NCBI GenBank assembly: GCA_046290465.1 | Contig: JBKAGP010000001.1 | Coordinates: forward strand, 3,520,001-3,584,000 | Reading direction: 5' to 3' | Length of the DNA stretch: 64,000 bases | Source: Planctomycetota bacterium | Lineage (GTDB): Bacteria; Planctomycetota; UBA1135; UBA2386 | In this document: positions 39,793 through 59,559 of the stretch, piece after piece | Layout: the number at the start of each line of letters is the position of its first letter | Position numbering within the stretch: position 1 is the first letter of the stretch | Program-made: the position numbers and the translations under genes | The notes under the pieces: generated by a model | The model's database searches: none | Told to the model about the DNA's origin: nothing | The model's input: only the letters and a program-made list of their open reading frames with translations

Positions 39793-40758
39793 ATGGCCTG
39801 GTCGCTGCGCACGTTCCTGATCGCCCTCGGCACGCTGGCCGCGTGCGGGCCGCAACCGGTGACCACCGACGACGCGGGCCGCATGCACGTCGCGGCGGTG
39901 TGTGCGCCCGAGGCCCTGACGGCGACCCTGCAGCAGCACGACGAAGCGACGCTGGTGGTCGCGCTCGACGTTGGGGGCGCCGACGTGCTGGCCTCGGTCC
40001 GTGCCGCCGGCCGCGCGCAGCAGCCGTTCGTGGTGGCGGTCGGCCCGTATCGCGAGGGCATGCCGCTGCCGGACGCGCTGGTCGCCGAGGCGACCGGCGC
40101 CGACGTCGCGATCGACCTCGCGCTGCTGGCGTGCACCGGCATCCCGACCAAGAACACCCGCTACGAGGTCGGCACGCGCACCTGGACCGAGGCCAACCGC
40201 CGGGCCGGCGGCACCGCGACGCTGGCGCCGGCCGACCCGATCCTGGCGATGCTGCGCGCGCAGCACGCCCAGCGGCTGACCACCAGTCCCGCTACCGACG
40301 AAGTGCACCGCATCGCGTTCGTGCTGCCGGGGGACGCTGCGCCGTGGCAGCGCGCCGCGCTCGCCGAGGCCGAAGCGGCCGCCGCGCGCTACCCGCAGCT
40401 GGACCTGGCCGTCGCCAGCGATGCCGAGACCGCCGTCCAGGGCCAGCCGCGCCTGCTGATCCTGGCGACGCACGATGCCGCCGAGACCGCGGCTGTGCGG
40501 CAGGCCGCCGGGAGCCTGCCCGACGGGCCGCGCCCGGTGATCGTGCTCGACCCGCTGCTCGACGATCGACACGACACCTGCCGCATCGGCTGCTCGCCGC
40601 GCACGCTCGCACAGGCCGCGGCCGTGCAGGTGCGCGCGCTGCTGCCCGACGGCGGCAACCTGGTCGTGTGCGTGCGCAAGGGCGGCACCGCGACGACCTC
40701 GATGCGGCTCGACGCGTTCGCCGAAGCGATGGGCTTCGACCCGGCGGCCCTGCGTTGA
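39793..40758 (+). CDS. Lipoprotein, degenerate periplasmic sugar-binding-like fold
   Basis: Lipobox LAAC; AEAAARYP.L, PVIVLD, IGC....A...A pattern. Confidence 0.55.
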   Translation: MAWSLRTFLIALGTLAACGPQPVTTDDAGRMHVAAVCAPEALTATLQQHDEATLVVALDVGGADVLASVRAAGRAQQPFVVAVGPYREGMPLPDALVAEATGADVAIDLALLACTGIPTKNTRYEVGTRTWTEANRRAGGTATLAPADPILAMLRAQHAQRLTTSPATDEVHRIAFVLPGDAAPWQRAALAEAEAAAARYPQLDLAVASDAETAVQGQPRLLILATHDAAETAAVRQAAGSLPDGPRPVIVLDPLLDDRHDTCRIGCSPRTLAQAAAVQVRALLPDGGNLVVCVRKGGTATTSMRLDAFAEAMGFDPAALR

Positions 40759-41639
40759 GCCGGCCCGACCGGCACGTGCCGGCGACCGGCGGCGGCCTGC
40801 ACTACATGGTGCAGGCGGCGTTCTGGTTCGCGGTGATGGCGATGCTCGTCAAGCTGGCGGGCGGCCGCGGCCTGCCGACGATGCAGATCGTGCTGGCGCG
40901 CGCCGTCGTGACGCTGGCGCTGAGCGCGATCGGGCTGGTGCGCGCGCGGCAGCGGCCGTGGGGCACCAACAACGGCCTGCTGGTGCTGCGCGGCGTGTTC
41001 GGCTCCGGCGGCTTCATCTGCTTCTACGCGGCGGTCAACCACCTGCCGCTCGCCGAGGCGACCGTGATCCACCACATCTCGCCGATCCTGACCGCCGTGG
41101 TCGCCGCGCTGTGGATCGGCGAACGGCTCGAAGGGCGCGTGCTGCTCGGCATGGGGCTCGCGTTCGTCGGGGTGCTGCTGATCGCGCAGCCGGGCTCGCT
41201 GTTCGGCGCCGACGACGCGCCGACCGACGTCCCGTGGCCGTTCGTGCTGGTCGGCGTGCTCGGCGCGCTGCTGGCGTCGTTCGCCTACGTGTCGGTGCGC
41301 CAGCTGGGCAGGACCGAGCCGCCGATCCTGGTGGTGTTCTACTTCCCGGCCGTATCGGTGCCGGTCAGCCTGCCGTTCGCGCTCGCCGACTGGGTCTGGC
41401 CGGACGCGTGGGGATGGCTGCTGCTGCTCGGCGTCGGCACGTCGACGCAGATCGCGCAGCTGGCGCTGACCAAGGGCCTCGCGCGCGAACGCGCCGGCCG
41501 CGCGACGTCCGTCGGCTACCTGCAGATCGCGTTCGCGGCGGTGTTCGGGCTGGTGCTGTTCGGGGACGTGCCGGGACCGTGGAGCTGGGCTGGCATGGCG
41601 CTGATCGTCGGCAGCCTGTTCGTCGCGCGACGACGGTAG
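40755..41639 (+). CDS. DMT/EamA family transporter
   Basis: About 10 TM helices; LPLAEATVI, LWIGE, YLQIAFA; TTG start overlaps upstream stop. Confidence 0.9.
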   Translation: MSRPDRHVPATGGGLHYMVQAAFWFAVMAMLVKLAGGRGLPTMQIVLARAVVTLALSAIGLVRARQRPWGTNNGLLVLRGVFGSGGFICFYAAVNHLPLAEATVIHHISPILTAVVAALWIGERLEGRVLLGMGLAFVGVLLIAQPGSLFGADDAPTDVPWPFVLVGVLGALLASFAYVSVRQLGRTEPPILVVFYFPAVSVPVSLPFALADWVWPDAWGWLLLLGVGTSTQIAQLALTKGLARERAGRATSVGYLQIAFAAVFGLVLFGDVPGPWSWAGMALIVGSLFVARRR

Positions 41640-41693
41640 GGCCGGCACCCGACGCGCGGCAGGTTGCCGCGCGGTTCGGCTACGTTGGCTGCC

Positions 41694-44600
41694 ATGGCCC
41701 GCCTCGGCACCCTCGTCGCGCTGGCGCTGCTGCTGCTCGCAGCCGCGTTCTGGCTGTTCGACCGGCAACCGGACGCCCCGATCGGCGGCCCCGACGCCCC
41801 GCCAGGATCCGGCTCCCCGCGAGCCGATCTCGCCGCCGCCGACGCCGACCTGCAGACCGGCAACGAACTCGATACGCTGCGCACCGACGCCGAGGTCGTT
41901 CGCGACGCGCCGGACTACGTCGTGCGCGGCACCGTGGTCGCCGACGAGCGGGCGCCGGACCTCTCGCAGGTGCGGGTGCTCGCCTACGAAGGGCAGCCAC
42001 AGGACGCGTCGGGGATCGTCACCGGCGCGATGGCGACGATGCAGCGCGGTGCGCGCGCGCCGGGATTCGTGCTGAAGGGCGACCCGATCGCCGAGGGCCG
42101 GGTCGCCGCCGACGGCGCGTTCGAACTGCGGACGCGCACGCCGCACCTGCGCGTCACGATCGACCACGACTTCTACCTGCAGCCGGTGCCCGAGGTCGTG
42201 CACGTCAACGCCGACACCCGCCGGCACCACCTCGTGCTGTCGCCGCTGCTCGGCGCCAAGGTCCGCGGCCGCCTGCTCGGCCCGCGCAGCGGCGACGTCG
42301 ACGCCGTCAAGCTGACGCTCGAGCCCGACCCGATGGCGATCCTGCGGGACGCGCGGCTGATGATGGCCGCGATGCTCGCCGCGACGCGGCCCGAGGCGCG
42401 GCCGCGCGACGACGGCACGTTCTCGTTCCGCGCCGTCGCACCCGGCGCGCAGCTCGCGTTCGCGGTCGACGGCAGCGGCGTGTCGGGCCGCACCCAGGAA
42501 CCGGCGCTGCAGGCCGGCGAGGTGCGCGACGTGGTGCTGCCGGTGCAGGACGCGGCGATCCTGATCGTCGAGGTCGTCGACGAACGGGGCGGTCCGCTGG
42601 CCGGGGTGCGCGTGCACGTTCGCCCCGCCGGCGGCGCCGGCATGACCGCGATGCTGCAGGCCCACGCCGAACGTACCGACGAGCGCGGCCACTGCAGGTT
42701 CGATCGCCTGGCGGCCGGCGCCTTCCAGGTCGAGGCCAACGCGCGCGGCCGCACCACCGCCCGCCGCGACCTCGACCTCGAACGGCGCGACGAGCCGCAC
42801 CGGCTGCAGCTGACGCTCGGCGTGGGCGGCGTCGTGACCGGCATCGTGCGCACGCCCGACGGCCGACCGCTGGCCGGCGCGCGGGTCGCGCACCACCCCG
42901 CGGCCGACATCCCGCTGCTCGGCGACCTGACCGACCAGCTCGGCCCCGAATACCTGCGCCAGATCGCGCAGGAGGGCGCCGAGACCGACGAGTCGGGTCA
43001 CTTCCGACTGACCGGCATCTCGGACCAGGATCCGTTCCTGGTGGTCGGCGCGCACGAGGACTTCGGCGCCGGTGTGGCGCGCGAGGTTGCGATCGGCGAC
43101 GAAGACGTGGTGGTCGAGCTGCAGCGGCTGAGCGGCGTGCTCGGCACCGTCACGCGCGCCGACGACCACCAGCCGGTGCCGCGGTTCTCGGTGTCGATCG
43201 TGCGCACGGCGTTCCTGGTCATGAAGATGCCGGTCGCCTCGGACACGTTCGTCACCGCCGACGGCACGTTCTCGCTGCGCGGCATCAGCCCCGGCAGCTA
43301 CACCGTCGAGGTCGAGGCGGACGGCTTCGGGACGTTCGAGAAGGGCATCAAGGTCGTCGAAGGGCAGGACGTCGTCGTCACCGGCATCGAACTGCAGCGC
43401 GCCGCCAGCATCCGCGGGGTGGTGCGCGACGAGCACGGCAACCCGATCGCCAACGCGATGGTGCAGAAGCGCAAGGGCGCGATGGCCGACAACCCGATGC
43501 TGACGATGCTGATGGGCTCGGGTTCGCGCACGTTCAGCGACGCCACCGGTCGGTTCGTGCTCGAACCGGTCAGCCCCGGCAAGCTGCAGCTGCTCGCCAC
43601 CGCGAACGGCTTTGCCAGCGGCCGCAGCGAACGCGTCGCGGTCGCGCCGGGACAGCAGCTCGAAGGCGTCGTGATCGAGCTGGGCCACGGTGGTTCGATC
43701 GACGGCGTGCTGCGCTGGAACGCCCAGCAGAACCCCGAAGACTTCCTGCTGCTGGCACAGCACCAGGTCACGCAGAACACCGCCACCGCCGAGCTGCGGC
43801 CTGACGGCACCTTCCGGATCGACAACCTGGACCCCGGCTCCTACCAGGTGCAGGCGATGCCGGCCGCGCTGATGAGCGGCTTCCAGGGACACGACTGGCG
43901 CCCGGGCGAAGGCCTCGACATCGGCGAGATGATGAAGCAGGTCACCGACAACGTCGTCTCGCAGCGCTGCCGGGTGCGCGCCGACGAGACCGCCAAGGTC
44001 GAACTCGACGTCCGTGACCTGGCGATCGGCGCGCAGTGGATCGTGCACGTCGACGTCGCCGGCGAGCCGCAGGCCGCCGGCATGGTCGAGGCGACGTCGC
44101 TCGAGACCGGCGCGCTGCGCGTCGCGATGATCGAGCACGGCACCGCGATCTTCGGTCGTGTGCACCCGGGCCGCCACCGCATGCAGGTGCGCTCCGGCCT
44201 GACGATGACGCCGGTCGGTGCGCCGCAGGACCTCGAGTTCCCCGCGGGCGCCGACGAGCACACATCGACGTTGTCGCTGCCCGGCGGCGAGCTGCGCGGC
44301 CGCGTCGTCGACGACCGCACCGGCGAGCCGCTGGCGCGCGCGATCGTGCGGCTGCACCACGACGGCCACGGCGAACGCGACGACCCGATCGGCATGTGCC
44401 TGACCGATGCCGACGGCGGCTTCCGGTTCACGGGGCTGACCGACGGCAGCTACAGCCTGGTGGCCGCCGAGCCGCTGCTGGGTGCCGGCCAGAACACCGC
44501 GTCGCGCCGTTCGGGCATCGAGGTCCGCACCGGCACCAGCCGCGATCCGGTCGAACTGCGTTCGCGGCCCGCGGCGGGCGCGACGGTGCAGGTCACGACC

Positions 44601-45098
44601 GCGGACGGCCGGCCGATCCGCGGCGCGACCGTGCTGTGCGTCGACGACGAAGGCCGTCCGCTCGGCAACCTCGGCGTCGCCGCGACCGGCCCCGACGGCA
44701 CCGCGTCGTTCGGCGGCATGGCCGACGGTCCGGCCCGCGTCGTCGGCAGAGCGCCCGGCTACGCGCCCGGGGCGACCCTGGTGCAGACGCTGTCGGCTGA
44801 GGCCAACACGCGCTTCGAACTGCGGCTCGGCGACGGTGCTCCGACCCGCATCTCGGTCGTCGACGGACTCGGCAAGCGGCTGCGCGGCGCGACCGTCACG
44901 GCGCGCGTCGGCGACCACCCGTGGCTGCCGCCGATGCTGCTGGTGCAGGCGATCGGGCCCGACGGCACCATCGACGTCGGCGAGCTCGGCCCGGGCCGCT
45001 GGAGCTTCCGCGTCCACCATCCGTCGGTCGGCACGATCACCCGCGAACGCACGATTTCGGGGACGGCGCCGGTGACCATCGTCGTCAGCAAGCCCTGA
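41694..45098 (+). CDS. Membrane-anchored protein with multiple carboxypeptidase-regulatory-like repeats
   Basis: N-terminal TM; repeated G.V.D..G.PL.GA.V...TD..G.F....L..G.Y units. Confidence 0.85.
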   Translation: MARLGTLVALALLLLAAAFWLFDRQPDAPIGGPDAPPGSGSPRADLAAADADLQTGNELDTLRTDAEVVRDAPDYVVRGTVVADERAPDLSQVRVLAYEGQPQDASGIVTGAMATMQRGARAPGFVLKGDPIAEGRVAADGAFELRTRTPHLRVTIDHDFYLQPVPEVVHVNADTRRHHLVLSPLLGAKVRGRLLGPRSGDVDAVKLTLEPDPMAILRDARLMMAAMLAATRPEARPRDDGTFSFRAVAPGAQLAFAVDGSGVSGRTQEPALQAGEVRDVVLPVQDAAILIVEVVDERGGPLAGVRVHVRPAGGAGMTAMLQAHAERTDERGHCRFDRLAAGAFQVEANARGRTTARRDLDLERRDEPHRLQLTLGVGGVVTGIVRTPDGRPLAGARVAHHPAADIPLLGDLTDQLGPEYLRQIAQEGAETDESGHFRLTGISDQDPFLVVGAHEDFGAGVAREVAIGDEDVVVELQRLSGVLGTVTRADDHQPVPRFSVSIVRTAFLVMKMPVASDTFVTADGTFSLRGISPGSYTVEVEADGFGTFEKGIKVVEGQDVVVTGIELQRAASIRGVVRDEHGNPIANAMVQKRKGAMADNPMLTMLMGSGSRTFSDATGRFVLEPVSPGKLQLLATANGFASGRSERVAVAPGQQLEGVVIELGHGGSIDGVLRWNAQQNPEDFLLLAQHQVTQNTATAELRPDGTFRIDNLDPGSYQVQAMPAALMSGFQGHDWRPGEGLDIGEMMKQVTDNVVSQRCRVRADETAKVELDVRDLAIGAQWIVHVDVAGEPQAAGMVEATSLETGALRVAMIEHGTAIFGRVHPGRHRMQVRSGLTMTPVGAPQDLEFPAGADEHTSTLSLPGGELRGRVVDDRTGEPLARAIVRLHHDGHGERDDPIGMCLTDADGGFRFTGLTDGSYSLVAAEPLLGAGQNTASRRSGIEVRTGTSRDPVELRSRPAAGATVQVTTADGRPIRGATVLCVDDEGRPLGNLGVAATGPDGTASFGGMADGPARVVGRAPGYAPGATLVQTLSAEANTRFELRLGDGAPTRISVVDGLGKRLRGATVTARVGDHPWLPPMLLVQAIGPDGTIDVGELGPGRWSFRVHHPSVGTITRERTISGTAPVTIVVSKP

Positions 45099-45147
45099 CG
45101 GGATCGCGTTGCCGGCCGGGTTCGCGTACCGTTCCTGCCCGCAGTTC

Positions 45148-46041
45148 ATGGCTGATCGTTCGTCGTTGCAGTTCTGGGTCGGCCGCTTCCTGCTCGGCGT
45201 CGGCATCCTGGTCGCCGCCGGCCTCGGCTTCGTGCCGCGCGTGCTGCACCTCAAGGACCCGCTCGGCCTCGCCACCGTCGCGCTCGGCTTCGTCGGCTTC
45301 TACATCGCGCTGGCCGCGGTCGCGCCGATGGCGCGCATCCGCAGCTACCGTTCGCGCACCCGCAAGGCCTGGAACGACGCCGCCCGCACCGCCTGGGACC
45401 GCGCCTCGCTGCCGCGCCGCATCTACTACCTGCTGTTCGCGGTCGCGCAGGCCGACGGCCCGATCACGCAGAGCGAACGCGACATCGTACGCACGTTCCT
45501 GCTGCCGCGGTTTCCGATCGAGGACCACGAGATCCGCACCTGGGAGCGGCAGCCGCTGCAGGTCAACGACCGCGTCGGCCTCGCCGCGCGCATCGCGGTC
45601 GGCCTCGACGAGGCCGAGCTCGACACGCTGTTCTGCTGGTGCGCGATGGTCGCGTTCGCCGACGGCCGCTTCCGACCGGACGAGCACGAGGCGCTGCACG
45701 AGATCGCGCGCGGCCTCGACATCCCGCCGCCGCGCGCGCGCATGCTGTTCCACCTGGCGCGGGCGCAGTTCCTGGCCGGATCGCATCGCGACGACGGCCG
45801 GGGTCGGCAGCGCAGCCAGCCGCAGGACGCCTCGCCGCCCAACGCGCGCATCGACGCACTCGCCGTGCTCGGCCTGCCGGTGCACGCGTCCGAGGACCAG
45901 ATCCGCAAGCGCCACCGCGAATTGGTGCGCAAGTTCCACCCGGACGCGCAGCCCAACCTCGGCGAGGCCGCGCAACAGGAGGCGACCGAGCGCTTCACGG
46001 CCATCCAGCGCGCCTACGAAGTGCTGACCAAGCCGGCCTGA
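45148..46041 (+). CDS. DjlA-like co-chaperone (TM + TerB-like + J domain)
   Basis: AVAQADG, AFADG...E; C-terminal J domain with KFHPD. Confidence 0.85.
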   Translation: MADRSSLQFWVGRFLLGVGILVAAGLGFVPRVLHLKDPLGLATVALGFVGFYIALAAVAPMARIRSYRSRTRKAWNDAARTAWDRASLPRRIYYLLFAVAQADGPITQSERDIVRTFLLPRFPIEDHEIRTWERQPLQVNDRVGLAARIAVGLDEAELDTLFCWCAMVAFADGRFRPDEHEALHEIARGLDIPPPRARMLFHLARAQFLAGSHRDDGRGRQRSQPQDASPPNARIDALAVLGLPVHASEDQIRKRHRELVRKFHPDAQPNLGEAAQQEATERFTAIQRAYEVLTKPA

Positions 46042-47928: not shown

Positions 47929-48480
47929 ATGAGCACTGCCGAACCGATCCTCGCAGAGCTGTTTCAGGCCCATCGGAGGGGCCTGGCGGGGGCGGTGCGC
48001 AGTGTGCTGGGTCCTTCGGAGGACGTGACCGAAGTGCTGCAGGACGCCTTCCTCAAGTGTTGGCGCGCGTGGCAACATGGCACCCGACCGAACGACCCGG
48101 TGGCATGGATCTTCGTCATCGTCTGGAACGCCGCAACCGACGCGAGGAGACGTCGGCAGCGACGACCCAACCACGAACCACTCGACGAGGAACGAACCGT
48201 GTCCGTCACCGCCAGAACCACCCCTTCGCCGTCACACGCGCTCGAGCAGCGCGAGGCGGTTGCAGAGGCCCAGGCCGCCGTCGCCCGGCTCAACGAGGAC
48301 GACCAGCAGGTGTTCCTGCTGCGCGTCGCCGGCGAGCTCAGCTACGAGGCCGTCGCCGCATCGCTGAGCATCCCCGTCGGCACCGCCAAGACCCGCATGC
48401 GCCGCGCGCTGATGCAGCTGCGCAGCATGCTCGGCGCCAAGGCCACGACCACCAACTTCACCAAGGAGAGCCTGCAATGA
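47929..48480 (+). CDS. ECF RNA polymerase sigma factor
   Basis: EVLQDAFLKCW, AWIF.I..N...D..R (region 2); LSYE.VA..L.IPVGTAKTRM.RA (region 4). Confidence 0.93.
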   Translation: MSTAEPILAELFQAHRRGLAGAVRSVLGPSEDVTEVLQDAFLKCWRAWQHGTRPNDPVAWIFVIVWNAATDARRRRQRRPNHEPLDEERTVSVTARTTPSPSHALEQREAVAEAQAAVARLNEDDQQVFLLRVAGELSYEAVAASLSIPVGTAKTRMRRALMQLRSMLGAKATTTNFTKESLQ

Positions 48481-51400
48481 GCGCGCCCGGCAACTGGAGC
48501 CCCGAAGAACGCGAGCAGCTGGTGCAAGAGCTGCTCGAACTGCACTTCGGCTGTCACGAAGCCCCTGACCAACTCGAGGCGCGCCTCGCCCAGGACCCGG
48601 CGCTGCGCGCGCTGCAGGCAGAGGTGGCGGGCCAGGCCGGCGTCATCGAGGAGGCCGTCAAGCCCGAGCAGGCGCGCCTCGAACTGCCCGCCGACGACGT
48701 GCACGCAAGCGCCGCTCGCCGCCCGCGCTGGTACCACACGCCGATCGGCCGCGTGACGATGGCCTTTGCCGCCGCCGCGCTCGTGGTCCTCGGCCTGCTC
48801 GGCCTCGAGCGCGTACACGACTGGCAGCTCGACGGCTACCGCGAGGACCACCTGCACCTGACCGTCAGCGCACCGCGCGCGGTCCCCGCCGGTGCCCCGT
48901 GGAGCTTCACCGTCGAGACCAAGGACCTGTCCGGCGGCCCCGCCGAATGCCGCGTGCGCTGGACCGCCTTCGGGGAGAAGGGCGAGGCGCTCGCCAGCGG
49001 CGAGGCGCCGACCGAGGCCGGCAGCGCAGTCATCGCGATGGGCAGCGACCTGGCCGTGCCGACGCGCGTCGAGGTCGTTGCGAGCCACCACGCCGACGAG
49101 GCGAAGCAGATCTTCGCGCTGTCGACGGCCTACGCCAGCCCGCTCGTGCACGTCAGCACCGATCGCCCGGTCTACCGTCCGGGCGAGCCGGTGTTCGTGC
49201 GCGTCACCGTGCTCGACCGCGTCTCGCGGCTGCCGCTGAAGCGGCCGTCGCCGATGTATGCCGAGCTGATCGACGCCAAGGGCGCATCGATCGCCAACGA
49301 CTTCGACGGTGTCGTGCCGAACGGCGTCGGCACGTTCCGCATGCAGGTCCCGGCCGACAGCGCCGGCGGCGTGCACCAGGTCCGCGTGCGCTCGCAGATG
49401 CAGCTGTTCCCGGAGGAGACCGCCGAGCTCGTCGTGCGCTCGTTCCGCAACCCGCAGCTCGATCAGGAGATCGTGCTCGATCGCAAGAGCTACGCGCCCG
49501 GCGCGCGCGGCGCGGCGACGGTGACCGCGACGCGGCTCGGCGACGGCCAGCCGTGCTCGCTCGCCAAGGTGCGCGGCGCGGTGATCGTCGACGGCAACGA
49601 GGTCTGGAGTGAGGAGAGCGGCCTCGGAGCTCAGGGCGAGATCACGTTCCGCTTCCAGATCCCGAAGGAGATCGAACGGGGAGCGGCGCGCTTCGTCGCG
49701 CAGGTGACGGACGGCGGCGTCGTCGAGTCGGCGATCGAGCCGTTCGTCGTGCCGACGGGGAAGGTCGCGGTGGCGGCCTTCCCCGAGGGTGGCGAGCTGG
49801 TCGCCGGCATCGAGAACGGCCTCTACCTCGAGTGCACCGACGCGCTCGACCGCCCGATCGACACCACCGGCGAGCTGATCGACGCCGACGGCCGCCGCGT
49901 CGCGTCGTTCCGCACGCAGCACCAGGGCCGCGTGCGGATGACGTTCGTGCCCGAGAAGGGCGCCACCTACCGCGTCCGCGTCGCCGGCAAGGCCGAGACC
50001 TTCGAGCTGCCGGCGGTGCGCGAGTCCGGCGTCGCGATGCGGCTGCTCGGCGACGACGTCGGCGCCGGCCAGCCGCTGCGCATGGCGCTCGGCGGCCGCG
50101 GCAACGGCCCGTGGGTGCTCGGCGTGTTCTGCCGCGGCGTGATGGTCGCGCAGACGACGCTGCGGCCGAACGACAACGGCGAACTGCACGCGCGCCCCGA
50201 GATCGCGCTGCCCGACACCGCGATCGGCGTGCTGCGCGCGACCGTCTTCGACCGCGAGCTCAAGCCGGTCGCCGAGCGCCTGCTGCGCCGCCGCAGCACG
50301 CACACGCTCGACGTGCGCCTGGCCACCGAGCACGACGTGCTGGCTCCCGGCGACCGCCAGCAGGTCAAGGTCACCGCGATCGACGAGACCGGTGAGCCAA
50401 CCCGCGCCGTGCTCGGCGTGCGCTGCACCGACGTCGCCGCGACGTCGATGGGCGACGAGCCGCGCATCTCGCTGGTCGACCAGGCGATGCTGTTCGGCGA
50501 CGTGCACGAGATGGAGGACCTCGGCGACTTCTTCCTGTCCAACGAGGCGGGTGGACGCAACGCCGACCTCTTGCTCGGCACGCGCGGCTGGCGCCGCTTC
50601 GTCTGGCGCAACGACGCCGCCGCCAAGCAGGCGATCGTCGACGCCGGCGACGCCGGCAAGGGCATCCTGGCGCGCGAGGGCTTCTCGCAGACGCCGCAGG
50701 TGCGCAGCAACCTGAAGGCCGCGATGGCGCCGTTCGCGGAGGCGCAGGAGCGCGTGCGCGACTCGCGGCAGCTGCTCGCGGGCATGGCCACGCTCGGCAT
50801 CATGCTGCTGCTGTTGCTGATCGTCGCCGAACTGGTCGCGTGGGGCCTGCGCAGCTGGCGCAGCGTGTCCGCGTCGACACAGGTGTTCGCCGGCATCGTG
50901 GTCGCGGTCCTGCTGTTCGGCTCCTTCTCGGTGCTACAGCTGTTCGGCTCGCAGCTGCTGGAGCCGGCGGACGGCGCCGCGATGGCCCCGGCGCGGAGCG
51001 GCGAAGCCGTCGACTTCGAAGGACCGTCGATGTTCGCCACGCACGCCCAGCCACTCGCTGCACCGGCGTGGCGCGGCCTGCAAGCCGGCAGGTACTTCAA
51101 CGACGGCATTGCCGGCGACATCTCGTTCGACTACTTCGGCATCGGCGCCACCGCCGGCGGTGGCCAGATCGACCTGCCCGTCGTGCACCGGTTCTCGTCT
51201 CGCTTCGACGACGTGCAACCGTCGCTCTTCCTGCCGCCGCAGATCCGCGAGATCCCGAGTGAGGAGGCCGAAGAACTCCTCGGCGAAGCCGCCCCGCGTT
51301 CGGATGCCTACTTCGCGCCCGCGTTCCGCTACGACCCCAGGACGATTCTGCAGAACTACAAGCAGCACTGGATCCAGCGCCAGTACGCCCACCGCCACGT

Positions 51401-53513
51401 CGCCTCCGAGCAACGCCGCGACTTCACCCCGACGATCTACTGGGACACGCTGCTGCTGACCGACGAGCGCGGCGAGGCGACGATCGCGTTCGACACCACC
51501 GACGCCGTCACCACCTGGCAGGTCGAAGCTGACGCGCACGTCGCGATCGGCGACACCGGCCGCCTCGGCCAGGCGTCGACGACGTTCACGACGCAGCTGC
51601 CGCTGCAGATCGAGCCGAAGCTGCCCGACGAGGTCTCGTGCGGCGACCGCCTGCAGCTGCCGGTCGCGGCAATCCTCAAGCAGGCCCGCGCCGGCGAGGT
51701 CGCGCTGACCGTCAAGCTCGGCCCCGGCCTGCGCCTCGGCAAGGACGCGCCCAGCGCGATCGCGCTCGAGGGCCAGAGCGGCGGCACCGGCCGCGGCCGG
51801 GCCCTGCTGCCCGTCGAGGTCACCGACTTCGTCGGCACCACCACGATCGAGCTGGAGGCTCGCGCCGGCGGCTTCGTCGACCGTGTGCGCCACACGCTGC
51901 AGGTCGCGCCGCGCGGCTTCCCCCACCGCCGCTCGGCCGGCGGCCAGGCGATCGCCGGCACCGATGGCCGCTGGTCGGTGACGATCCCGGACGACGCGGT
52001 GCCGGGCTCCGGCCAGGCGACGCTGGTCGTCTACCCGTCGCCGATCGCCGCGCTGACCGAAGGCCTCGAGGGCATCCTGCGCGAACCGCACGGCTGCTTC
52101 GAGCAGACCAGCTCGTCGAACTACCCCAACACGCTGGTGCTCCGCCTGATCGAGGCCAGCGGCGACGACCTGCCGCGGATCGCGGCGCGCGCCCGCGACC
52201 TGCTGCCGCGCGGCTACCGCCGCATCGTCGGCTACGAGTGCCCCGAGAAGGGCTACGAGTGGTGGGGCAAGGACCCCGGTCACGAGACGCTGACGGCCTA
52301 CGGCCTGCTGCAGTTCCACGACATGTCGAAGGTCTACGACGTCGACGTGGAGATGGTCGATCGCACCCGCAGGTGGCTGCTCGGACGGCGTGACGGCGAA
52401 GGCAACTTCGTGCGACCGACCGGCAACAGCCACAGCTTCGGTGGCCGTGACCCGAAGGTCACCAACGCCTACGTCACCTACGCGCTGCTGCAGACCGGCA
52501 CGCCGGAGGCGGAGCTGAAGGTCGAGATCGACGCGCTGGTCGCGCGCATCGAGCAGGCCGACGCCTACGAGCTGGCGCTGATCGCGTGCGCGCTCGCCCT
52601 CACCGAGCGCGTCGAGGCCGCCGAGGCGCGCGACCGCCTCGCGTCGCTGCAGCAGGACGACGGCTCGGTGCCGGGCGCCAGGACGACGATCACGATGAGC
52701 GGCGGCCGCGACCGGATCGTCGAGACCACCGGCTTCGCCGTGCTGGCGTGGCTGCGAGACCCGGCCAAGGCGGGCCACGTGCGCAAGGCCGTCGCCTACC
52801 TGCATGCGGCGCGCGGCGGCCACGGCACGTTCGGCGCCACGCAGGCGACCATCGTGGCGCTGCGAGCGCTGACCGAATACGCGACCGTCAGCCGCACGAT
52901 GCGGGAGGCCGGTGCGATCCAGGTCTTCGACGGCGAGCGCCTGCTGGCTCGCCAACCGTTCGCGGCGCACGACGTCGGGCCGATCAAGTTCGAACTCTGG
53001 AACGAACTCACGCCAGGCGCACACTCGCTGCGCATCGAGCTCACCGGCGGCGGCAAGTCGCCGATGCCCTGGTCCGGCGAGATCGCCTACCACGCCGAAC
53101 TTCCGGCCACCGACCCGCTGACGCAGACGGCGGTGACGACCCGGCTGCGCGAGGCGAGCGTCGAAGAAGGTCGCACCGTGGCCCTTGACGTCACCATCGA
53201 GAACGTCACCGACGACGAGCTGCCGACCCCGATGGCGATCGTCGGCCTGCCGGCCGGCCTCGACATCTCGACCGAGGTGCTCGAGGACATGAAGAAGGCC
53301 CAGCGGTTCGACTACTGGGAACTGCAGGGCCGCGAGCTGGTGCTCTACTGGCGCAAGCTCGATGCCACCGAGCGGCGCGAGCTGACGTTCGACCTGACGG
53401 CGCGCATCCCGGGCACGTCGCGCGGGCCAGCGTCGCGGTCCTACCTCTACTACACGCCGCAGCAGAAGCAGTGGGCGCAGCCGCTGGAGATCGAGGTGCG
53501 CCCAGCGGGATGA
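48477..53513 (+). CDS. Alpha-2-macroglobulin family protein with anti-sigma-like N-terminus and internal TM hairpin
   Basis: STDRPVYRPGE (MG2), FPEGG.LV, RRDF..TIYW, LREPHGCFEQ thioester, LTAY, TQAT..AL.AL; ATGA overlap with the sigma gene. Confidence 0.9.
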   Translation: MSAPGNWSPEEREQLVQELLELHFGCHEAPDQLEARLAQDPALRALQAEVAGQAGVIEEAVKPEQARLELPADDVHASAARRPRWYHTPIGRVTMAFAAAALVVLGLLGLERVHDWQLDGYREDHLHLTVSAPRAVPAGAPWSFTVETKDLSGGPAECRVRWTAFGEKGEALASGEAPTEAGSAVIAMGSDLAVPTRVEVVASHHADEAKQIFALSTAYASPLVHVSTDRPVYRPGEPVFVRVTVLDRVSRLPLKRPSPMYAELIDAKGASIANDFDGVVPNGVGTFRMQVPADSAGGVHQVRVRSQMQLFPEETAELVVRSFRNPQLDQEIVLDRKSYAPGARGAATVTATRLGDGQPCSLAKVRGAVIVDGNEVWSEESGLGAQGEITFRFQIPKEIERGAARFVAQVTDGGVVESAIEPFVVPTGKVAVAAFPEGGELVAGIENGLYLECTDALDRPIDTTGELIDADGRRVASFRTQHQGRVRMTFVPEKGATYRVRVAGKAETFELPAVRESGVAMRLLGDDVGAGQPLRMALGGRGNGPWVLGVFCRGVMVAQTTLRPNDNGELHARPEIALPDTAIGVLRATVFDRELKPVAERLLRRRSTHTLDVRLATEHDVLAPGDRQQVKVTAIDETGEPTRAVLGVRCTDVAATSMGDEPRISLVDQAMLFGDVHEMEDLGDFFLSNEAGGRNADLLLGTRGWRRFVWRNDAAAKQAIVDAGDAGKGILAREGFSQTPQVRSNLKAAMAPFAEAQERVRDSRQLLAGMATLGIMLLLLLIVAELVAWGLRSWRSVSASTQVFAGIVVAVLLFGSFSVLQLFGSQLLEPADGAAMAPARSGEAVDFEGPSMFATHAQPLAAPAWRGLQAGRYFNDGIAGDISFDYFGIGATAGGGQIDLPVVHRFSSRFDDVQPSLFLPPQIREIPSEEAEELLGEAAPRSDAYFAPAFRYDPRTILQNYKQHWIQRQYAHRHVASEQRRDFTPTIYWDTLLLTDERGEATIAFDTTDAVTTWQVEADAHVAIGDTGRLGQASTTFTTQLPLQIEPKLPDEVSCGDRLQLPVAAILKQARAGEVALTVKLGPGLRLGKDAPSAIALEGQSGGTGRGRALLPVEVTDFVGTTTIELEARAGGFVDRVRHTLQVAPRGFPHRRSAGGQAIAGTDGRWSVTIPDDAVPGSGQATLVVYPSPIAALTEGLEGILREPHGCFEQTSSSNYPNTLVLRLIEASGDDLPRIAARARDLLPRGYRRIVGYECPEKGYEWWGKDPGHETLTAYGLLQFHDMSKVYDVDVEMVDRTRRWLLGRRDGEGNFVRPTGNSHSFGGRDPKVTNAYVTYALLQTGTPEAELKVEIDALVARIEQADAYELALIACALALTERVEAAEARDRLASLQQDDGSVPGARTTITMSGGRDRIVETTGFAVLAWLRDPAKAGHVRKAVAYLHAARGGHGTFGATQATIVALRALTEYATVSRTMREAGAIQVFDGERLLARQPFAAHDVGPIKFELWNELTPGAHSLRIELTGGGKSPMPWSGEIAYHAELPATDPLTQTAVTTRLREASVEEGRTVALDVTIENVTDDELPTPMAIVGLPAGLDISTEVLEDMKKAQRFDYWELQGRELVLYWRKLDATERRELTFDLTARIPGTSRGPASRSYLYYTPQQKQWAQPLEIEVRPAG

Positions 53514-53574
53514 CTGTCGCGATGACTGTCGCGATGACTGTCGCGATGACTGTCGCGATGACTGTCGCGATGAC
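53509..53574. repeat. Perfect 12-bp VNTR, (GATGACTGTCGC) x5.5
   Basis: Read directly; overlaps the macroglobulin stop codon. Confidence 0.97.
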
Positions 53575-53599
53575 GCGGGCAGGCTATGCTGCCCGCGTC

Positions 53600-54955
53600 A
53601 TGCGCCTCGCCGCCGCCATCCTCCTCGCGCTGACCGCGACCGCCGCCGGTCAGGCCCCCGCGAACTACTACAACACGGTCGTCACCGCGAACGCCGCGCA
53701 GCTGCGCGCGACCCTGCACGCGGTGATCGACGACCACCAGCGGTTCCCCTACACGTCGGGCGGCACCGACACGTGGGACATCCTCGAGGACGCCGACCAG
53801 GATCCGGGCAACGCATCGCGCATCCTCGACGTCTACCGCAACGCGTCGTACGCGAAGGTCGGCGGCGGCAACTCCAACTACAACCGCGAGCACGTCTGGC
53901 CCAACAGCTACGGCTTCCCGAACGACGGCGGCGGCAACTACCCCTACACGGACTGCCACAACCTGTTCCTCTGCAACATCGGCTACAACGGCCAGCGCGA
54001 CCGCAAGCCGTTCGACAACGGCAGCGCCAGCTGGGTCGAGCTGACGACCGTCGGCGGCGGCAGCGGCAGTTACCCGGGCAACTCCAACTGGCGCACGACG
54101 AGCAACTCGCCGGGCGGCTTCGAGGTCTGGCAGGACCGCCGCGGCGACATCGCGCGCGCGCTGTTCTACATGGACGTTCGCTACGAGGGCGGCACGCACC
54201 AGAACGGCAGCGCCGAGCCGGACCTGATCCTGACCGACACGGTGTCGTTGATCACCAGCAGCGCGACCGGCAACAACGAGTCGGTGGCCTACATGGGCAA
54301 GCTCAGCGTGCTGCTGCAGTGGCACGCGCAGGACCCGGTCGACGGCAAGGAGATGGCACGCAACGACGCGGTGTTCGGCTACCAGGGCAACCGCAACCCG
54401 TTCGTCGACCACCCGGAGTGGGTCGACTGCATCTTCGCCAACCAGTGCAGCACCTCGACGTCGCAGCGCGAGCCCGAGGTCTGGATCAACGAGCTGCACT
54501 ACGACAACGCCGGCGCCGACCTCAACGAGTTCGTCGAACTGGCCGGCCGCGCCGGCGAACGCATCGACGGCTGGATGCTGGTCGCCTACGACGGTGCCAC
54601 CGGCCAGGCCTACGACCGCGTCGCGCTGCGCGGCACGTTCGCCGACCAGCAGAACGGGTTCGGCACGTTGTCCTTCGCGTTCCCCGGCCTACAGAACGGT
54701 CTCGACGGGGTCGCCGTGGTGACCTCGACCGGAGTCGTGATGCAGTTCCTCAGCTACGGCGGCACGTTCGTCGCCAGCAACGGCGCCTGCAAGGGCCGCA
54801 GCTCGGTCGACATCGGCGTCACCGAAGGCGCCTCGACGCCGGTCGGGTTCTCGCTGCGGCTCTCCGGGACCGGCAGCGGCTACGCGCAGTTCGCCTGGCA
54901 GCCGCCGTTCGTGCAGACCCCCGGCACCCCGAACGTCAGCCAGACCTTCCAGTAA
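53600..54955 (+). CDS. Secreted endonuclease I/Bsn family nuclease with C-terminal lamin-tail-like domain
   Basis: NREHVWP, DCHNL, GDIARALFYM, QGNRNPFVDHPE; WINELHYDN..D..EFVEL. Confidence 0.9.
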   Translation: MRLAAAILLALTATAAGQAPANYYNTVVTANAAQLRATLHAVIDDHQRFPYTSGGTDTWDILEDADQDPGNASRILDVYRNASYAKVGGGNSNYNREHVWPNSYGFPNDGGGNYPYTDCHNLFLCNIGYNGQRDRKPFDNGSASWVELTTVGGGSGSYPGNSNWRTTSNSPGGFEVWQDRRGDIARALFYMDVRYEGGTHQNGSAEPDLILTDTVSLITSSATGNNESVAYMGKLSVLLQWHAQDPVDGKEMARNDAVFGYQGNRNPFVDHPEWVDCIFANQCSTSTSQREPEVWINELHYDNAGADLNEFVELAGRAGERIDGWMLVAYDGATGQAYDRVALRGTFADQQNGFGTLSFAFPGLQNGLDGVAVVTSTGVVMQFLSYGGTFVASNGACKGRSSVDIGVTEGASTPVGFSLRLSGTGSGYAQFAWQPPFVQTPGTPNVSQTFQ

Positions 54956-55147: not shown

Positions 55148-55239
55148 GGGCGTTCGGCGACGGAGGTGACAACGGTGTCACGAACCCACGTTCGGCGGGA
55201 CGTCGGCGCCGCGCGCTCATTCGCTAGGATATGCGCGCC

Positions 55240-58200
55240 ATGCCTCGTCCGACCCGCCGACTCCTCGGGGGCGTTGCCCTCGTACTGACCACGACCGCCG
55301 CCGCCCAGCACGACGGGGTCGTGCCCGAGCCAGCCGCCGCCGCCAGCGTCGACTACCTGCGCGACGTGCGGCCGATCCTGGCCGAGCACTGCTACAGCTG
55401 CCACGGCCCCGACCAGAAGGAACGCAAGGGCGACCTGCGCCTCGACCTGAAGAAGGACGCGTTCGCCGACCGCGGCGACTACGCAGTCGTCAAGCCCAAC
55501 GATCCGGACGACTCCGAACTGCTGCTGCGCATCACCAGCGACGACCCCGACGAGGTGATGCCGCCGCCGGACTGCGACGACGCGCTGAAGCCTGCCGAGG
55601 TCGAGGTGCTGCGCAAGTGGATCGCGGAAGGCGCTGGCTGGCAGGAGCACTGGGCGTTCGTGCCGCCCAAGCGGCCGGCGACGCCACCGGTTCAGGACGG
55701 CGACTGGACCCGCAACGACATCGACGCGTTCGTGCTCGCACGACTCGAACAGCAGGGGCTGCGTCCCAGCGGTGAGGCGACCCGCGAACAGTGGCTGCGG
55801 CGCGTCACGTTCGACTTGATCGGCCTGCCGCCGACTCCGAAGGAGATCGACGCCTTCTTGCGCGACACCTCGGCCGACGCCTACGCCAAGGTCGTCGACC
55901 GCCTGCTCGCCGACGAACGCTACGGCGAGCGCATGGCGACCGACTGGCTCGACGCCGCCCGCTACGCCGATTCGAGCGGCTACCAGCGCGACAGCTCGCG
56001 CGAGGCGTGGAAGTGGCGCGACTGGGTCATCGACGCGCTCAACCAGAACATGCCGTTCGACCGGTTCGCGATCGAACAGCTGGCCGGCGACCTGCTGCCG
56101 GAGCCGACGCTGGACCAGCGCATCGCGACCGGCTTCAACCGAAACCACCCGGTCAACACCGAGGCGGGCGAGGAGCTCGACGAGTACCGTTCGGCCTACG
56201 TCATCGACCGCGTGCACACGACGGCGACGACCTTCCTCGGCCTGACGGTCGCGTGCGCGCAGTGCCACGACCACAAGTACGACCCGATCTCGCAGAAGGA
56301 GTTCTACTCGTTCTACGGGTTCTTCAACTCGATCAAGGAGCGCGACAACGGCAGCGGCCGCAACCCGAAGCCGGCGATCGCAGCCCCCGACGAGGACCAG
56401 CTCGCCAGGCTGCGCGACCTCGAGGCGCGCATCGAGATGCTCAAGAAGCGGCTCGAACAGGACGACCCGATCACCGACCAGTTCCAGACGCGCTGGGAGA
56501 ACGCGACGCGCAAACGGCTCGGCGGGCCGATCGCGTGGACGCCGCTGAAGCCGACCGAGTTCATGGCGCGCTACGGCTCGCGGCTGGTGCTGCAGGACGA
56601 CCACTCGGTGCTCGCGACCGGTCCGACGCCGTCGCGCGACACCTACGACCTCGTGTTTGCGCCCGGCAAGCGCAAGATCCAGGCGATCCGCATCGAGGTG
56701 CTGCCGGACCCGTCGATGCCGCACGGCGCTTCGGGCCGCGCCGACGACGGCCGCTTCATCCTGTCGCGCCTGACGTCGCGCATGACCAGCGTCTCGGACA
56801 GCAGCGACCCGCCGCTGATCGCCTACGCGCTGGCCGAAGCCGACATCAACCAGAAGCGCGACCGCGACGAGCACTACCTGACCGCGATCAACCCCGGCTC
56901 GTTCGGTGCGTCCGTCGCGGTCGAGGACGACTCGGGCAGCGGCGGCTTCCGCCGTTCGTTCGGCGGCTGGAGCATCGCCGGCGACGAGCGCAAGCAGGCA
57001 CGCGAGGCGGTGCTGATCCCGATCGAACCGCTCGACTCCAACGCGATGTCGCTGCTGCGGCTGACGCTCGAACACAACTCGCGCAACAAGTTCCGCAGCC
57101 TGATCGGCCGCTTCCGCGTGTCGTTCACCGAGGACCCGCGCGTCCGCGAGCAACTGGTGCCGCTGGCCGAGACGCACTGGCGCAGCATCGGGCCGTTCCC
57201 GGCCCCGTCCGTCGCAGCCGCGCACGCGCTGCCGTTCGGCCCGGAGAAGGACCTCAAGGAGCCCAACTGGAAGAAGAAGCACAACCAGCCGATCCTGCCG
57301 AAGAAGGAGGAGGCAAGCAGCAAGAAGCCGGCGGGCGGCGGCAAGCCCGGCGAGAAGGCGCCGGCGGCCAATGCCGCGGTCGCCAAGGGCAAGCCGCGGC
57401 CAGCCGGCCCGAAGACGGCCGAGGCCGGCAAGGGCAGGGCGGACACGCCGAAGCCCGCGGCGACGACGGGCGCGGCGAAGGGCAAGCCGACCGGCAAGGC
57501 CGACCCGAAGCCGGTCGCCGCGGCGCCGGCGAAGAAGCCCGCCCCCCAGCAGCAGGACGACGAGAAGGACGACGAGCAGGCCAGGCCGAAGCGCAAGCCG
57601 AAGCCCAAGCGCCTCGCGTGGACCGAGCAGACGAAGTGGCGTGACGGCAGCCGCGCGACCGTGCCCGTCACCGGACCGGCGTCGGCGACCTACCTGTCGC
57701 GCACGCTGACGACCAGGCAGCCGCGCACCGCGCGCATCGAGTTGTCCGGCGGCGAAGGTGCCAAGGTCTGGCTCAACGGCAAGGTCGTCGGCGACTTCGC
57801 GCCGAGCCCGACCCCGGCGACGCCGCCGAAGCCGCAGACCGGCAGCCCGATGGCGTTCGACCCGGCCGACTTCGATCCGGAGACCTTCGACTTCGCCAAC
57901 TTCGATCCGGCGATGTTCGAGAACTTCGACCCGTCGCAGCTGCGCCGCAGCCGCTCGACGAGCAAGCCGCGCGAGCTGCGCATCGGCCTGCGCAAGGGCG
58001 AGAACCACCTCGTCGTCAAGCTGACCGGCAAGGGCAGTTCGCCGTCGTCGTCCCGCCGCGGTGGCGGTTCGTCGACGAGCCCGTCGCCGATGTCGCGACG
58101 CAGCCGCAGCAGCGGCACGTCGTTCACGTTCGAGATCGTGCCCGAGGGCGACGACGTGCTGAACTACGAGACGATGCTCGCCGTGCGCGGCCGCGCCGGC

Positions 58201-59559
58201 GACGCGCCGAGCAAGGCCGCCGAAGCCAGCGTGAGCAAGCCGGACGGCGACAAGGCCGACAAGAAGAGCAAGCAGCTGACCCCGGTCGAACGCCGCGCCA
58301 AGGTCGCTCGCGAATGGTACCGGACCCGCATCGACGTGGCCGGCCGCGTGCTGGCCGACGAGCTGCGCAAGCTCGAGCGCGAGAAGGGCGAACTCGAACG
58401 CACGCTGCCGTCGGCGCTGGTCATGGAGGAGCTCGACGAGCCGCGCAAGACGCGCGTGTTCGTGCGTGGCGACTACCGCAACCCCGGCGAGGAGGTCGAG
58501 GTCGGCACGCCGTCGATGCTGCCCCCGATGCCGAAGGACCTGCCGAAGAACCGCCTCGGCCTGGCCAGGTGGCTGATGTCGGGCGATCACCCGCTGACCG
58601 CGCGGGTCACCGTCAACCGGGCGTGGCAGCAGTTCTTCGGCCGCGGCATCGTCAGCACGGCGGAGGACTTCGGCATCCGCGGTGCGCAGCCGAGCCACCC
58701 GCAGCTGCTCGACTGGCTGGCGACCGAGTTCGTGCAGAGCGGCTGGAACCTCAAGAAGCTGCACCGCTCGATCGTGCTGTCGGCGACCTACCGCCAGAAC
58801 GCGCACATGTCGAAGCAGGCCCTGGCCAGCGACCCCGACAACGTGCGGCTGGCGCGCGGCCCGCACCAACGCCTGACGGCCGAGATGGTGCGCGACCAGG
58901 CGCTGCACGTCGCCGGCCTGCTCAAGCAGAAGGTCGGCGGCAAGAGCGTCAAGCCGTTCCAGCCCGAGGGCCTGTGGCGCGCGACGCTCGGCTCGGGCCG
59001 CTGGTCGCAGGACAAGGATGACGAACGCTACCGCCGCGGCCTCTACGTCTACTGGAAGCGCGGCGTGCCGTACCCGTCGTTCATGGCGTTCGACGCGAGC
59101 AAGCGCGAGACCTGCACGGTGACGCGCACGCGCACGACCACGCCGCTGCAGGCGCTCGTCATGCTCAACGACCCGGTCTACGCCGAGGCCGGCCGCCACC
59201 TGGGCCAGCGCCTGCAGAAGGACGGCGGCGACGACGATCGCGCCCGCATCGCGTTCGGCTTCAAGCTGGTCGCCTCGCGCGCGCCCGAGCCCAAGGAGGT
59301 CGAGCTGCTGACCCGGCTGCTCGGCCAGCTCCGCAAGCACTACGAGGCCAACGACAAGGACGCCAAGGCGGTGCTCGGCCTGGAGGAGAAGAAGCCGAAC
59401 TCACGAGGGCGCTCGCGCGGCACCCCGACACCGAAACCCAAACCCGTCGCGCGGTCGTCGAAGCAGCGCAAGGACGACGTGCCGCCGGCCGAGGCCGCGG
59501 CCTGGGCGCAGCTCGGCTGCACGCTGCTGAACCTCGAAGCCGCGATCCGGAGGGGCTGA
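55240..59559 (+). CDS. PSD1/planctomycete cytochrome c domain protein (DUF1549 + DUF1553)
   Basis: CYSCH and [11 protein letters not shown] heme motifs; [46 protein letters not shown]; alternative start 55231. Confidence 0.93.

Follow-up and report, generated by a model that had tools for sequence, protein, structure and literature searches.

A planctomycete alpha-2-macroglobulin with two predicted membrane helices in its bait region and a possible link from bait cleavage to an ECF sigma factor

We analysed a 64,000-nucleotide stretch of a Planctomycetota genome (contig JBKAGP010000001.1, positions 3,520,001 to 3,584,000; the whole stretch is hereafter referred to as the window) and focused on one gene that joins a predicted anti-sigma domain to an alpha-2-macroglobulin (A2M) and lies directly downstream of a gene for an extracytoplasmic function (ECF) sigma factor. 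The encoded protein is a member of the A2M/thioester-containing superfamily, and a conserved pair of hydrophobic helices, hereafter the hairpin, maps to its bait region. The reading that we favour, and to which we give an even chance, is that the hairpin crosses the inner membrane twice within the bait-region domain (BRD) and pins the bait, a cut in which would be reported to the sigma factor. In its boldest form, put forward tentatively and as a possibility that leans to the doubtful side, the bait would be stitched through the inner membrane, one periplasmic cut would both spring the trap and free the ECF sigma factor, and a sister clade would make a two-chain, lipid-anchored, C3-like A2M.

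The A2M gene starts at the ATG at 48477 with AAGGAG upstream, stops at 53513 and is present in one copy in its 6.59-Mb genome (Table 1). Forward-strand translation of positions 50772-50945 returned exactly the 58 residues that the original prediction had described as two transmembrane (TM) helices, and these are residues 766-823 of a 1678-residue open reading frame (ORF). Kyte-Doolittle (KD) hydropathy (19-residue window, threshold 1.6) exceeded 1.6 at only three places in the protein, namely residues 89-114 (peak 2.12), 763-794 (2.70) and 796-828 (2.26), which bears out the proposal of three TM-like segments; for the pair itself, the translation, the hydropathy peaks and a helix-turn-helix modelled by AlphaFold2 (AF2) agree. 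The segments were assigned as TM1, TM2 and TM3 from hydropathy, predicted helices and topological consistency. The AF2 model, which covers residues 1-1190 and was built from a 49-row alignment (mean pLDDT 81.3, pTM 0.72), begins with a confident three-helix domain (residues 9-60), followed by a disordered spacer (62-83), a long helix corresponding to TM1 (89-124) and all-beta macroglobulin (MG) domains up to residue 652. Further along, the model has the helix-turn-helix, consisting of TM2 with an amphipathic lead-in (746-792) and TM3 (799-827), then about 125 disordered residues (825-951), a helix (954-967) and beta strands from residue 986. The low-structure stretch described after the pair is likewise seen in the model, with pLDDT <50 for residues 825-843, 850-926 and 936-951. 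Apart from a few positions, the sequences of the TM helices are poorly conserved. The positions that are kept include A97 (39/49 rows) and A98 (35/49) of TM1, E785 of TM2 (32/49), R792 (33/49, plus K in 5) and R793 (31/49), and G806, a small residue of TM3 (31/49); E785, R792, R793 and G806, together with the Ala-rich TM1, suggest specific helix packing rather than a generic anchor.

Membership of the superfamily was established by both sequence and fold. Pfam detected MG2 at residues 224-312 (46.8 bits, cutoff 32.8) and A2M at 986-1064 (36.9 bits, cutoff 21), and residues G1206, C1207, F1208, E1209 and Q1210, a candidate thioester site by sequence, are invariant in the 49 rows. At the C-terminus, A2M_recep (18.7 bits, cutoff 21.7) and bMG10 (16.4 bits, cutoff 26.2) both matched below cutoff, and the profile alignment to TEP1 and C3 runs through position 1630. 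Foldseek searches with the model recovered CD109, C3, C5, A2M, A2ML1 and the Escherichia coli A2M (ECAM) at E <1e-28, with CD109, C3 and C5 ranking highest and the CD109, C3 and A2M matches spanning about 1100 columns at E <1e-30. These matches confirm the fold, and the placement of the insert was taken instead from the family profile of 49 members.

In the MAFFT alignment the helix pair falls between two conserved motifs, DLLLGTxGWRRF and (R)xYAH..RxDFxETxYW. In the window protein LLLGTRGWRRF begins at residue 698 and RRDFTPTIYW at residue 980, so the pair is flanked by these two segments, as had been stated; D697, L698, L700, G701, W705 and R706 are invariant. In the hairpin-less relatives P0114, P0115, P0119 and P0122 these two motifs are joined by a variable linker that is shorter. 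The family profile aligns the second motif to residues 719-745 of human A2M, RLVHVEEPHTETVRKYFPETWIW (PDB 6tav). The human BRD comprises 127 residues inserted between strands 4 and 5 of MG6; its first region has two short helices (Gln602-Leu627), and its last, region IV, is Glu729-Arg732 (excerpts of PMC9181621). Taken together, the profile match and these limits imply that R980/R981 matches the point where the human BRD ends. Profile position 959 pairs with residue 16 of the C3b alpha' chain, where that alignment starts, and the ECAM match (profile 973-1236 to 4rtd 954-1224) starts just past the ECAM bait, which includes Arg923-Leu942 (excerpts of PMC4498604). A phmmer search of the PDB with residues 590-1100 alone gave no matches at E<=1. 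The proposal that the pair is inserted inside the bait region was therefore upheld by alignment with homologues and with ECAM, which places it between the first MG6 strands and the post-bait strand. As judged from these alignments, the helical stretch 653-734 (AF2 helices at 653-657, 666-673, 682-685, 692-701, 714-723 and 725-734, ahead of the start of 746-792), the hairpin and the disordered linker together fill the BRD position. The disordered stretch after TM3 is likely to be the bait: low pLDDT, variability and the aligned C-terminal boundary indicate a flexible bait-region insertion in MG6, and its protease sensitivity is predicted.

The linker also holds short recognizable strings. It contains a YFNDGxxGD motif, and [FY][FY]NDG occurs in 25/174 full-length relatives. 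In the otherwise disordered linker of relatives such as P0004, P0008, P0010, P0012, P0013, P0023, P0025, P0035 and P0041, this is part of a conserved cassette, (ANPLAG)AFFNDGxDGDIRARxENFF. A degenerate copy lies at window positions 51000-51070 (residues ~868-885), GRYFNDGIAGDISFDYF, and a similar string is present in the hairpin-less P0115.

We further examined how widely the hairpin is conserved. A word-index search yielded 222 homologues, of which 120 were listed, and 116 of these 120 have hydrophobic segments at the hairpin position, down to 34% identity. Because they are conserved across homologues, the segments are more than a chance feature, although the residues within the hairpin vary. 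A scan of one genome per species gave 75 loci, six of them without the anchor motif; among the 69 assessable loci, the segments are present in 30 and absent from 39. All 30 carriers have Planctomycetota titles, with Brocadiaceae, Isosphaeraceae, Pirellulales, Thermoguttaceae and Planctomycetaceae among them. The 39 loci without the segments encode forms of about 1400 residues from Myxococcota, Lentisphaerota, Acidobacteriota, Melainabacteria, Gammaproteobacteria and some Planctomycetota, and the N-terminus was signal-peptide-like in 9 of the 10 read, the tenth (L033) being an anti-sigma form. HMMER with residues 640-1000 against 1.84 billion cluster representatives (50% identity) found 171 matches at E<=1e-3. 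Among the 150 matches listed, eight lacked the anchor motif and 12 were too short; the remaining 130 had two segments in 108 cases, one in 8 and none in 14. In a FastTree phylogeny of 86 rows, computed without the insert columns and with 11 incomplete rows skipped, the carriers formed two supported clades, one of 32 rows that includes the window protein (support 96) and one of 16 rows (support 100), and none of 200 label shuffles gave as few changes. The fork joining the carrier clades to the non-carriers is unresolved and compatible with a single origin or more. Some tree labels were false by eye, namely the lipoboxes called by regular expression inside the window's clade (Cys within a helix) and the hairpin of L026 (one weak 15-mer). 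The hairpin has thus been retained in two deep clades, to ~31-34% identity. A search for shorter forms returned 31 matches, many annotated as partial or on contigs <10 kb, with no recurrent split at the hairpin; the idea of a split gene was dropped, as no recurrent form ending after TM2 was found among them.

The sigma gene that overlaps the A2M start encodes a factor with regions 2 and 4 only (Pfam Sigma70_r2, 50.4 bits; Sigma70_r4_2, 47.7 bits; NCBIfam TIGR02937, 82.3 bits, cutoff 42.9). With tblastn, the gene immediately upstream of the A2M gene proved to be an orthologue in 26 loci, namely 25 of the 30 hairpin loci and L035, which is unscored for the hairpin. At the other five hairpin loci the upstream DNA is shorter than 370 nt. 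The window sigma factor has no adjacent tblastn match at any of the 39 hairpin-less loci, a count that leaves room for divergent sigma genes such as that of L033. The N-terminal domain of the A2M protein is modelled as three helices (9-23, 30-39 and 41-60) with pLDDT >90. When the sigma factor was modelled in complex with residues 1-90, the ipSAE reached 0.82, a mark attained by 116/157 solved complexes and 2/215 mismatched pairs, compared with 0.00 for the best of three controls; since sigma/anti-sigma complexes have already been solved, this pass may reflect likeness rather than binding. The runs share at least 87% of contacts with partner pLDDT of at least 79, and the modelled contacts fall on sigma residues 9-45 and 107-168, that is, regions 2 and 4. 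The model supports the predicted binding of the N-terminal domain to the sigma factor between these two regions.

The N-terminal domain also varies among carriers in a short motif. The window's clade has an HxxCH-type ELLELHFGCHE (window 48540-48560, residues 19-28), and the clade with a lipobox (see below) has ELLELHYGLLE without Cys; neither is the canonical zinc-binding anti-sigma motif, Hx3Cx2C. In the complex model, some of the best-defined contacts with sigma region 4 are made by residues 24-26.

A distinct form of the hairpin was found in the Pirellulales-type sequences, all 11 of which (P0117, P0118, P0120, L053, L059, L063, L068, L070, L071, L072 and L074) carry a lipobox; P0120 is named Roseimaritima ulvae by NCBI. 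Their second helix is a short one, preceded by an all-basic loop of 5-9 residues (mean 3.45 K/R, 0 D/E); it has 16-22 uncharged residues and ends in [LVIMF]x[G]C[GSA], with endings such as VLGC, LVGC, LSGC, VYGC or similar, then G, S or A; the lipobox region lies ~95-135 residues past the GWRRF motif. These sequences form one clade (support 97), and about 21 cluster representatives have the pattern (19 by regular expression, of which P0154 is false by eye, and 3 more by eye). The second helix of this clade looks like an internal lipoprotein signal peptide, and the precursor would probably be lipidated and cut by signal peptidase II, which would sever the TM2-TM3 link. If so processed, these proteins would be two-chain A2Ms with a bait starting at the lipid anchor, and lipoprotein maturation within a polytopic precursor would in itself be unusual. 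In the window protein, residues 791-840 include no Cys, and so no lipobox, and the loop is followed by a run of 33 uncharged residues. We also considered, and set aside, the possibility that members of the lipobox clade have their C-terminal half translated separately, as a start codon at the basic loop is inconsistent, being present in 5/8 loci (ATG in L059, L068, L070 and L071; TTG in L053; none in three); where present it could be chance, a gene-fusion relic or an internal start.

Our favoured reading of a membrane-pinned bait translates into the following topology and mechanism. If the N-terminal domain binds the cytoplasmic sigma factor, this domain is itself cytoplasmic, TM1 runs from inside to outside and MG1-6 would be periplasmic. 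TM2 would then lead inward, the basic loop would be cytoplasmic, and TM3 would lead outward again to the bait, MG7, CUB, TED and MG8 in the periplasm; adding two helices leaves the topology otherwise unchanged, so the trap would keep both its halves in the periplasm. In human A2M, discontinuity of the bait is the essential trigger, which releases a plug segment from the central channel (excerpts of PMC9352918). In the window protein the hairpin would clamp the beginning of the disordered bait to the membrane, and bait continuity would run through TM3 or, in members of the lipobox clade, through the lipid anchor. Cleavage anywhere from TM3 to residue ~968 would sever the thioester module from the membrane-bound MG1-6 ring, to which it has no other covalent link; the plug segment would come free and the trap would collapse around the protease. 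TM1 and TM2 would hold the ring, which may then pass the change to the anti-sigma domain via TM1; a three-helix bundle could carry it, or the protein could become open to regulated proteolysis. This step from the ring to the anti-sigma domain would be the weakest of the chain. What the TM-anchored and lipid-anchored forms have in common, as read from their sequences, is an upstream bait end predicted to be fixed to the membrane, and not a continuous hairpin.

Several observations weigh against this reading. Residues 1-90 have no Pfam or NCBIfam anti-sigma match, and PF13490 gave none at E<=0.1. At locus L033 (6503-12089), a divergent ECF sigma ORF lies directly upstream of an anti-sigma::A2M gene whose product has an Hx3Cx2C zf-HC2 domain, one TM segment and a hairpin-less A2M; P0115, the sister of L033 in the tree, carries PF13490. 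The hairpin is therefore not required for coupling between sigma factor and A2M, and sigma-coupled A2Ms occur both with and without a membrane stitch. Membrane insertion of the segments is itself deduced from models, and the positive-inside argument (mean of 2.65 K/R in the TM2-TM3 loop of 107 non-lipobox relatives) is weakened by the flank before TM2, predicted to be periplasmic, which has a high K/R content of its own (mean 3.2 in 15 residues), so that charge alone leaves the orientation undecided. As the TM2-TM3 link would probably be cut in the lipobox clade, force transmission through the hairpin would not be general. Moreover, a bait cut after TM3 leaves MG1-6 attached between TM1 and TM2. 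Site-1/site-2 proteolysis of the RseA/RseP kind needs a short periplasmic stub, so this route is not obviously opened. In favour of the earlier suggestion of a possible route for signal transfer stands an N-terminus modelled to bind a translationally coupled sigma factor; the hairpin as a signalling wire does not fare well, given L033/P0115 and the lipobox clade. Signal transfer through the protein to the sigma factor is nonetheless plausible on the strength of the models.

Some of the same facts would suit a hairpin that stands outside signalling altogether, as a passive second anchor that keeps the bait at the membrane surface or as a Sec export aid that restarts export of the ~1580-residue periplasmic region, with the sigma factor controlled otherwise. 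We regard this as rather unlikely. It accords with the hairpin-less, sigma-coupled A2Ms (L033, P0115), with helix sequences that vary at most positions and with E. coli ECAM, which is simply anchored in the inner membrane (excerpts of PMC4498604). It does not sit well with the retention of the hairpin in two deep clades, with the conservation of E785, R792, R793, G806 and A97, or with the occurrence of the hairpin only together with the anti-sigma domain and the sigma gene.

The lipobox clade raises another alternative, which we hold to be improbable as an account of the family: TM3 would be a cleaved internal signal peptide, and the protein would be split at the site that separates the beta and alpha chains of C3 and C4 into an N-chain (anti-sigma domain, TM1, MG1-6 and TM2) and a C-chain (bait, MG7, CUB, TED and MG8). 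The cut would be made by signal peptidase I in proteins of the window's clade; in the Pirellulales-type clade signal peptidase II would act, accompanied by lipidation. Internal signal peptide cleavage has a precedent in the cytochrome b/c1 polyprotein FbcH of Bradyrhizobium, and the C3 chains in PDB entries meet at the corresponding position. In addition to the lipobox of one entire clade, the pattern P-x-[TASV]-[LI]-G-[SGA] often follows TM3 in the window's clade and fits the -3/-1 rule, and the window protein has LQLFG/S after TM3. The -3/-1 pattern is, however, weak in Ala/Gly-rich sequence, where small residues are common; the window protein has no Cys in or after TM3, and its 33-residue uncharged run is long for a cleavable signal peptide. 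An unanchored cut by signal peptidase I would furthermore break bait continuity, leaving a trap spent at birth (by the mechanism in excerpts of PMC9352918).

That the segments are buried helices of a soluble domain, or an artefact of frameshift or gene fusion, is hardly credible: the TM topology is a prediction, and weak Pfam matches to DUF6234 and DUF2567 (19.9 and 17 bits, below cutoffs) could be cited for it, but each segment has at least 20 mostly apolar residues (KD 2.3-2.7), both are modelled as long helices on an otherwise all-beta MG scaffold, soluble relatives lack them, the reading frame runs unbroken in the window gene and in >100 homologues from independent assemblies, and the 31 shorter matches have no recurrent split. 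The DUF6234, DUF2567 and Phage_holin_2 matches to the hydrophobic segments, all below cutoffs, were read as compositional TM matches and discarded.

The remaining neighbours of the pair were also inspected. A minus-strand ORF of 1628 residues (40389-45275), which overlaps the 1144-residue ORF and has no Pfam match, is probably a shadow frame. The endonuclease I-like ORF is syntenic in L001, L002, L003 and L005 only. A conserved third gene was sought in the 1144-residue ORF upstream (3 loci) and the endonuclease I-like ORF (4 loci) and rejected, these neighbours being common to close relatives only; the pair of sigma factor and A2M alone is general across loci.

Table 1. Features of the window discussed in the text, with position in the window, strand and supporting evidence
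Feature	Position	Strand	Evidence
1144-aa ORF	41664-45098	+	49-52% identity over ~1060 residues to upstream ORFs in L006, L010 and L011
ECF sigma factor gene, 183 aa; TGA stop overlaps the next ATG (ATGA)	47929..48480	+	Pfam, NCBIfam
Anti-sigma::alpha-2-macroglobulin gene, 1678 aa, three predicted TM segments	48477..53513	+	ORF, ribosome-binding site, Pfam MG2/A2M/TED, Foldseek
Predicted anti-sigma, N-terminal cytoplasmic helical domain, residues 1-61, ELLELHFGCHE motif	48477..48659	+	AF2, complex model
TM1, predicted Ala-rich signal-anchor, residues ~89-112	48741..48812	+	KD peak 2.12, AF2 helix 89-124
MG1-MG5 and first MG6 strands, residues 126-652, predicted periplasmic	48852..50432	+	AF2 pLDDT mostly >90; Pfam MG2 224-312
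Helical N-terminal part of the bait-region domain, residues 653-765, including LLLGTRGWRRF and the amphipathic lead-in to TM2	50433..50771	+	AF2 helices
TM2, residues 766-790, predicted stop-transfer helix, periplasm to cytoplasm	50772..50846	+	KD peak 2.70, AF2 helix 746-792
Short basic loop LRSWRSVSAST, residues 791-801, predicted cytoplasmic	50847..50879	+	Conserved R792/R793
TM3, residues 802-825, predicted re-export helix, cytoplasm to periplasm	50880..50951	+	KD peak 2.26, AF2 helix 799-827
Disordered variable linker, residues 826-967, probable bait	50952..51377	+	Low pLDDT, unalignable, length varies among relatives
Bait-region domain end and first post-bait strand, residues 968-989, QYAH..RRDFTPTIYW	51378..51443	+	Profile vs human A2M
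Thioester domain, residues 1193-1468, CFEQ at 1207-1210 (nt 52095-52106)	52053..52880	+	Pfam TED_complement 96.9 bits (cutoff 22)
C-terminal MG8/receptor-binding-like domain, residues 1559-1664	53151..53468	+	Pfam A2M_recep, bMG10, both below cutoff
Endonuclease I-like protein	53471-54955	+	PF04231 121 bits; directly downstream of the A2M gene
1442-aa planctomycete PSCyt1/PSCyt2/PSD1 (DUF1549/DUF1553) protein	55231-59559	+	

We compared the window protein with the known systems that it resembles. Bacterial A2Ms such as ECAM/YfhM of E. coli (4ziq, 4rtd, 5a42) and Sa-A2M of Salmonella (4u48) are, like the window protein, predicted or known MG chains tethered to the inner membrane and facing the periplasm, and they share with it the disordered bait, the CUB domain and a thioester TED with CxEQ (Foldseek E ~1e-28 to 1e-32). 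The ECAM/YfhM-type anchor is an N-terminal lipoprotein signal peptide, whereas the window protein begins with an 88-residue helical domain followed by a TM segment and has no N-terminal lipobox. ECAM has an N-terminal anchor only, no cytoplasmic domain and a soluble bait, and its proposed partner is Pbp1C, pbpC being a neighbour of the ECAM-type A2M gene (excerpts of PMC4498604); the window protein differs in its anti-sigma-like domain with TM1, in the two predicted TM helices of its bait domain and in its ECF sigma partner. Pfam detected no transglycosylase among the nine neighbouring ORFs scanned. By sequence the window protein is closer to A2M, CD109 and TEP1 (E 1e-59 to 1e-65) than to ECAM (1e-20).

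The metazoan A2M, A2ML1, CD109 and C3/C4/C5 have the same domain order, and CD109 is a cell-surface member of the family (excerpts of PMC12927315). They also have the same insertion point, which is occupied by the BRD in A2M and by ANA and alpha'NT in C3, and C3 is a two-chain protein split at the site equivalent to the hairpin of the window protein. The metazoan thioester proteins compared have neither a membrane crossing at the bait position nor a fusion to an inhibitor of a transcription factor.

Class I ECF anti-sigma factors (RseA, RsrA/ChrR type) resemble the window protein in their short helical N-terminus, TM helix and extracytoplasmic sensor, and the window gene is translationally coupled to its sigma gene as in class I pairs. 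The differences are a sensor that consists of a ~1560-residue thioester protease trap predicted to re-enter the membrane, and the absence of zf-HC2, with HxxCH in place of Hx3Cx2C. In the main text and the part of one supplement consulted of Casas-Pastor 2021 (PMC7826278), macroglobulin or A2M goes unmentioned, and our literature search found nothing on an anti-sigma/A2M fusion, a TM segment in the bait region or bacterial internal signal peptides.

Each of the two components, the A2M trap and the ECF anti-sigma factor, is known, and the unusual features are the predicted membrane-stitched bait and the putative internal lipobox. Should the proposed mechanism be true, it would provide a direct route from protease sensing to gene switching and a bacterial counterpart to the two-chain processing and post-cleavage signalling of complement. 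The TM-tethered, lipid-tethered and untethered sigma-coupled forms offer natural variants for dissecting the role of bait continuity in the A2M switch, and Roseimaritima ulvae is a possible organism for experiments on the lipobox clade. Known A2M proteins are traps that are either soluble or held by a single anchor, known ECF anti-sigma factors are single-pass sensors, and the window family joins both.

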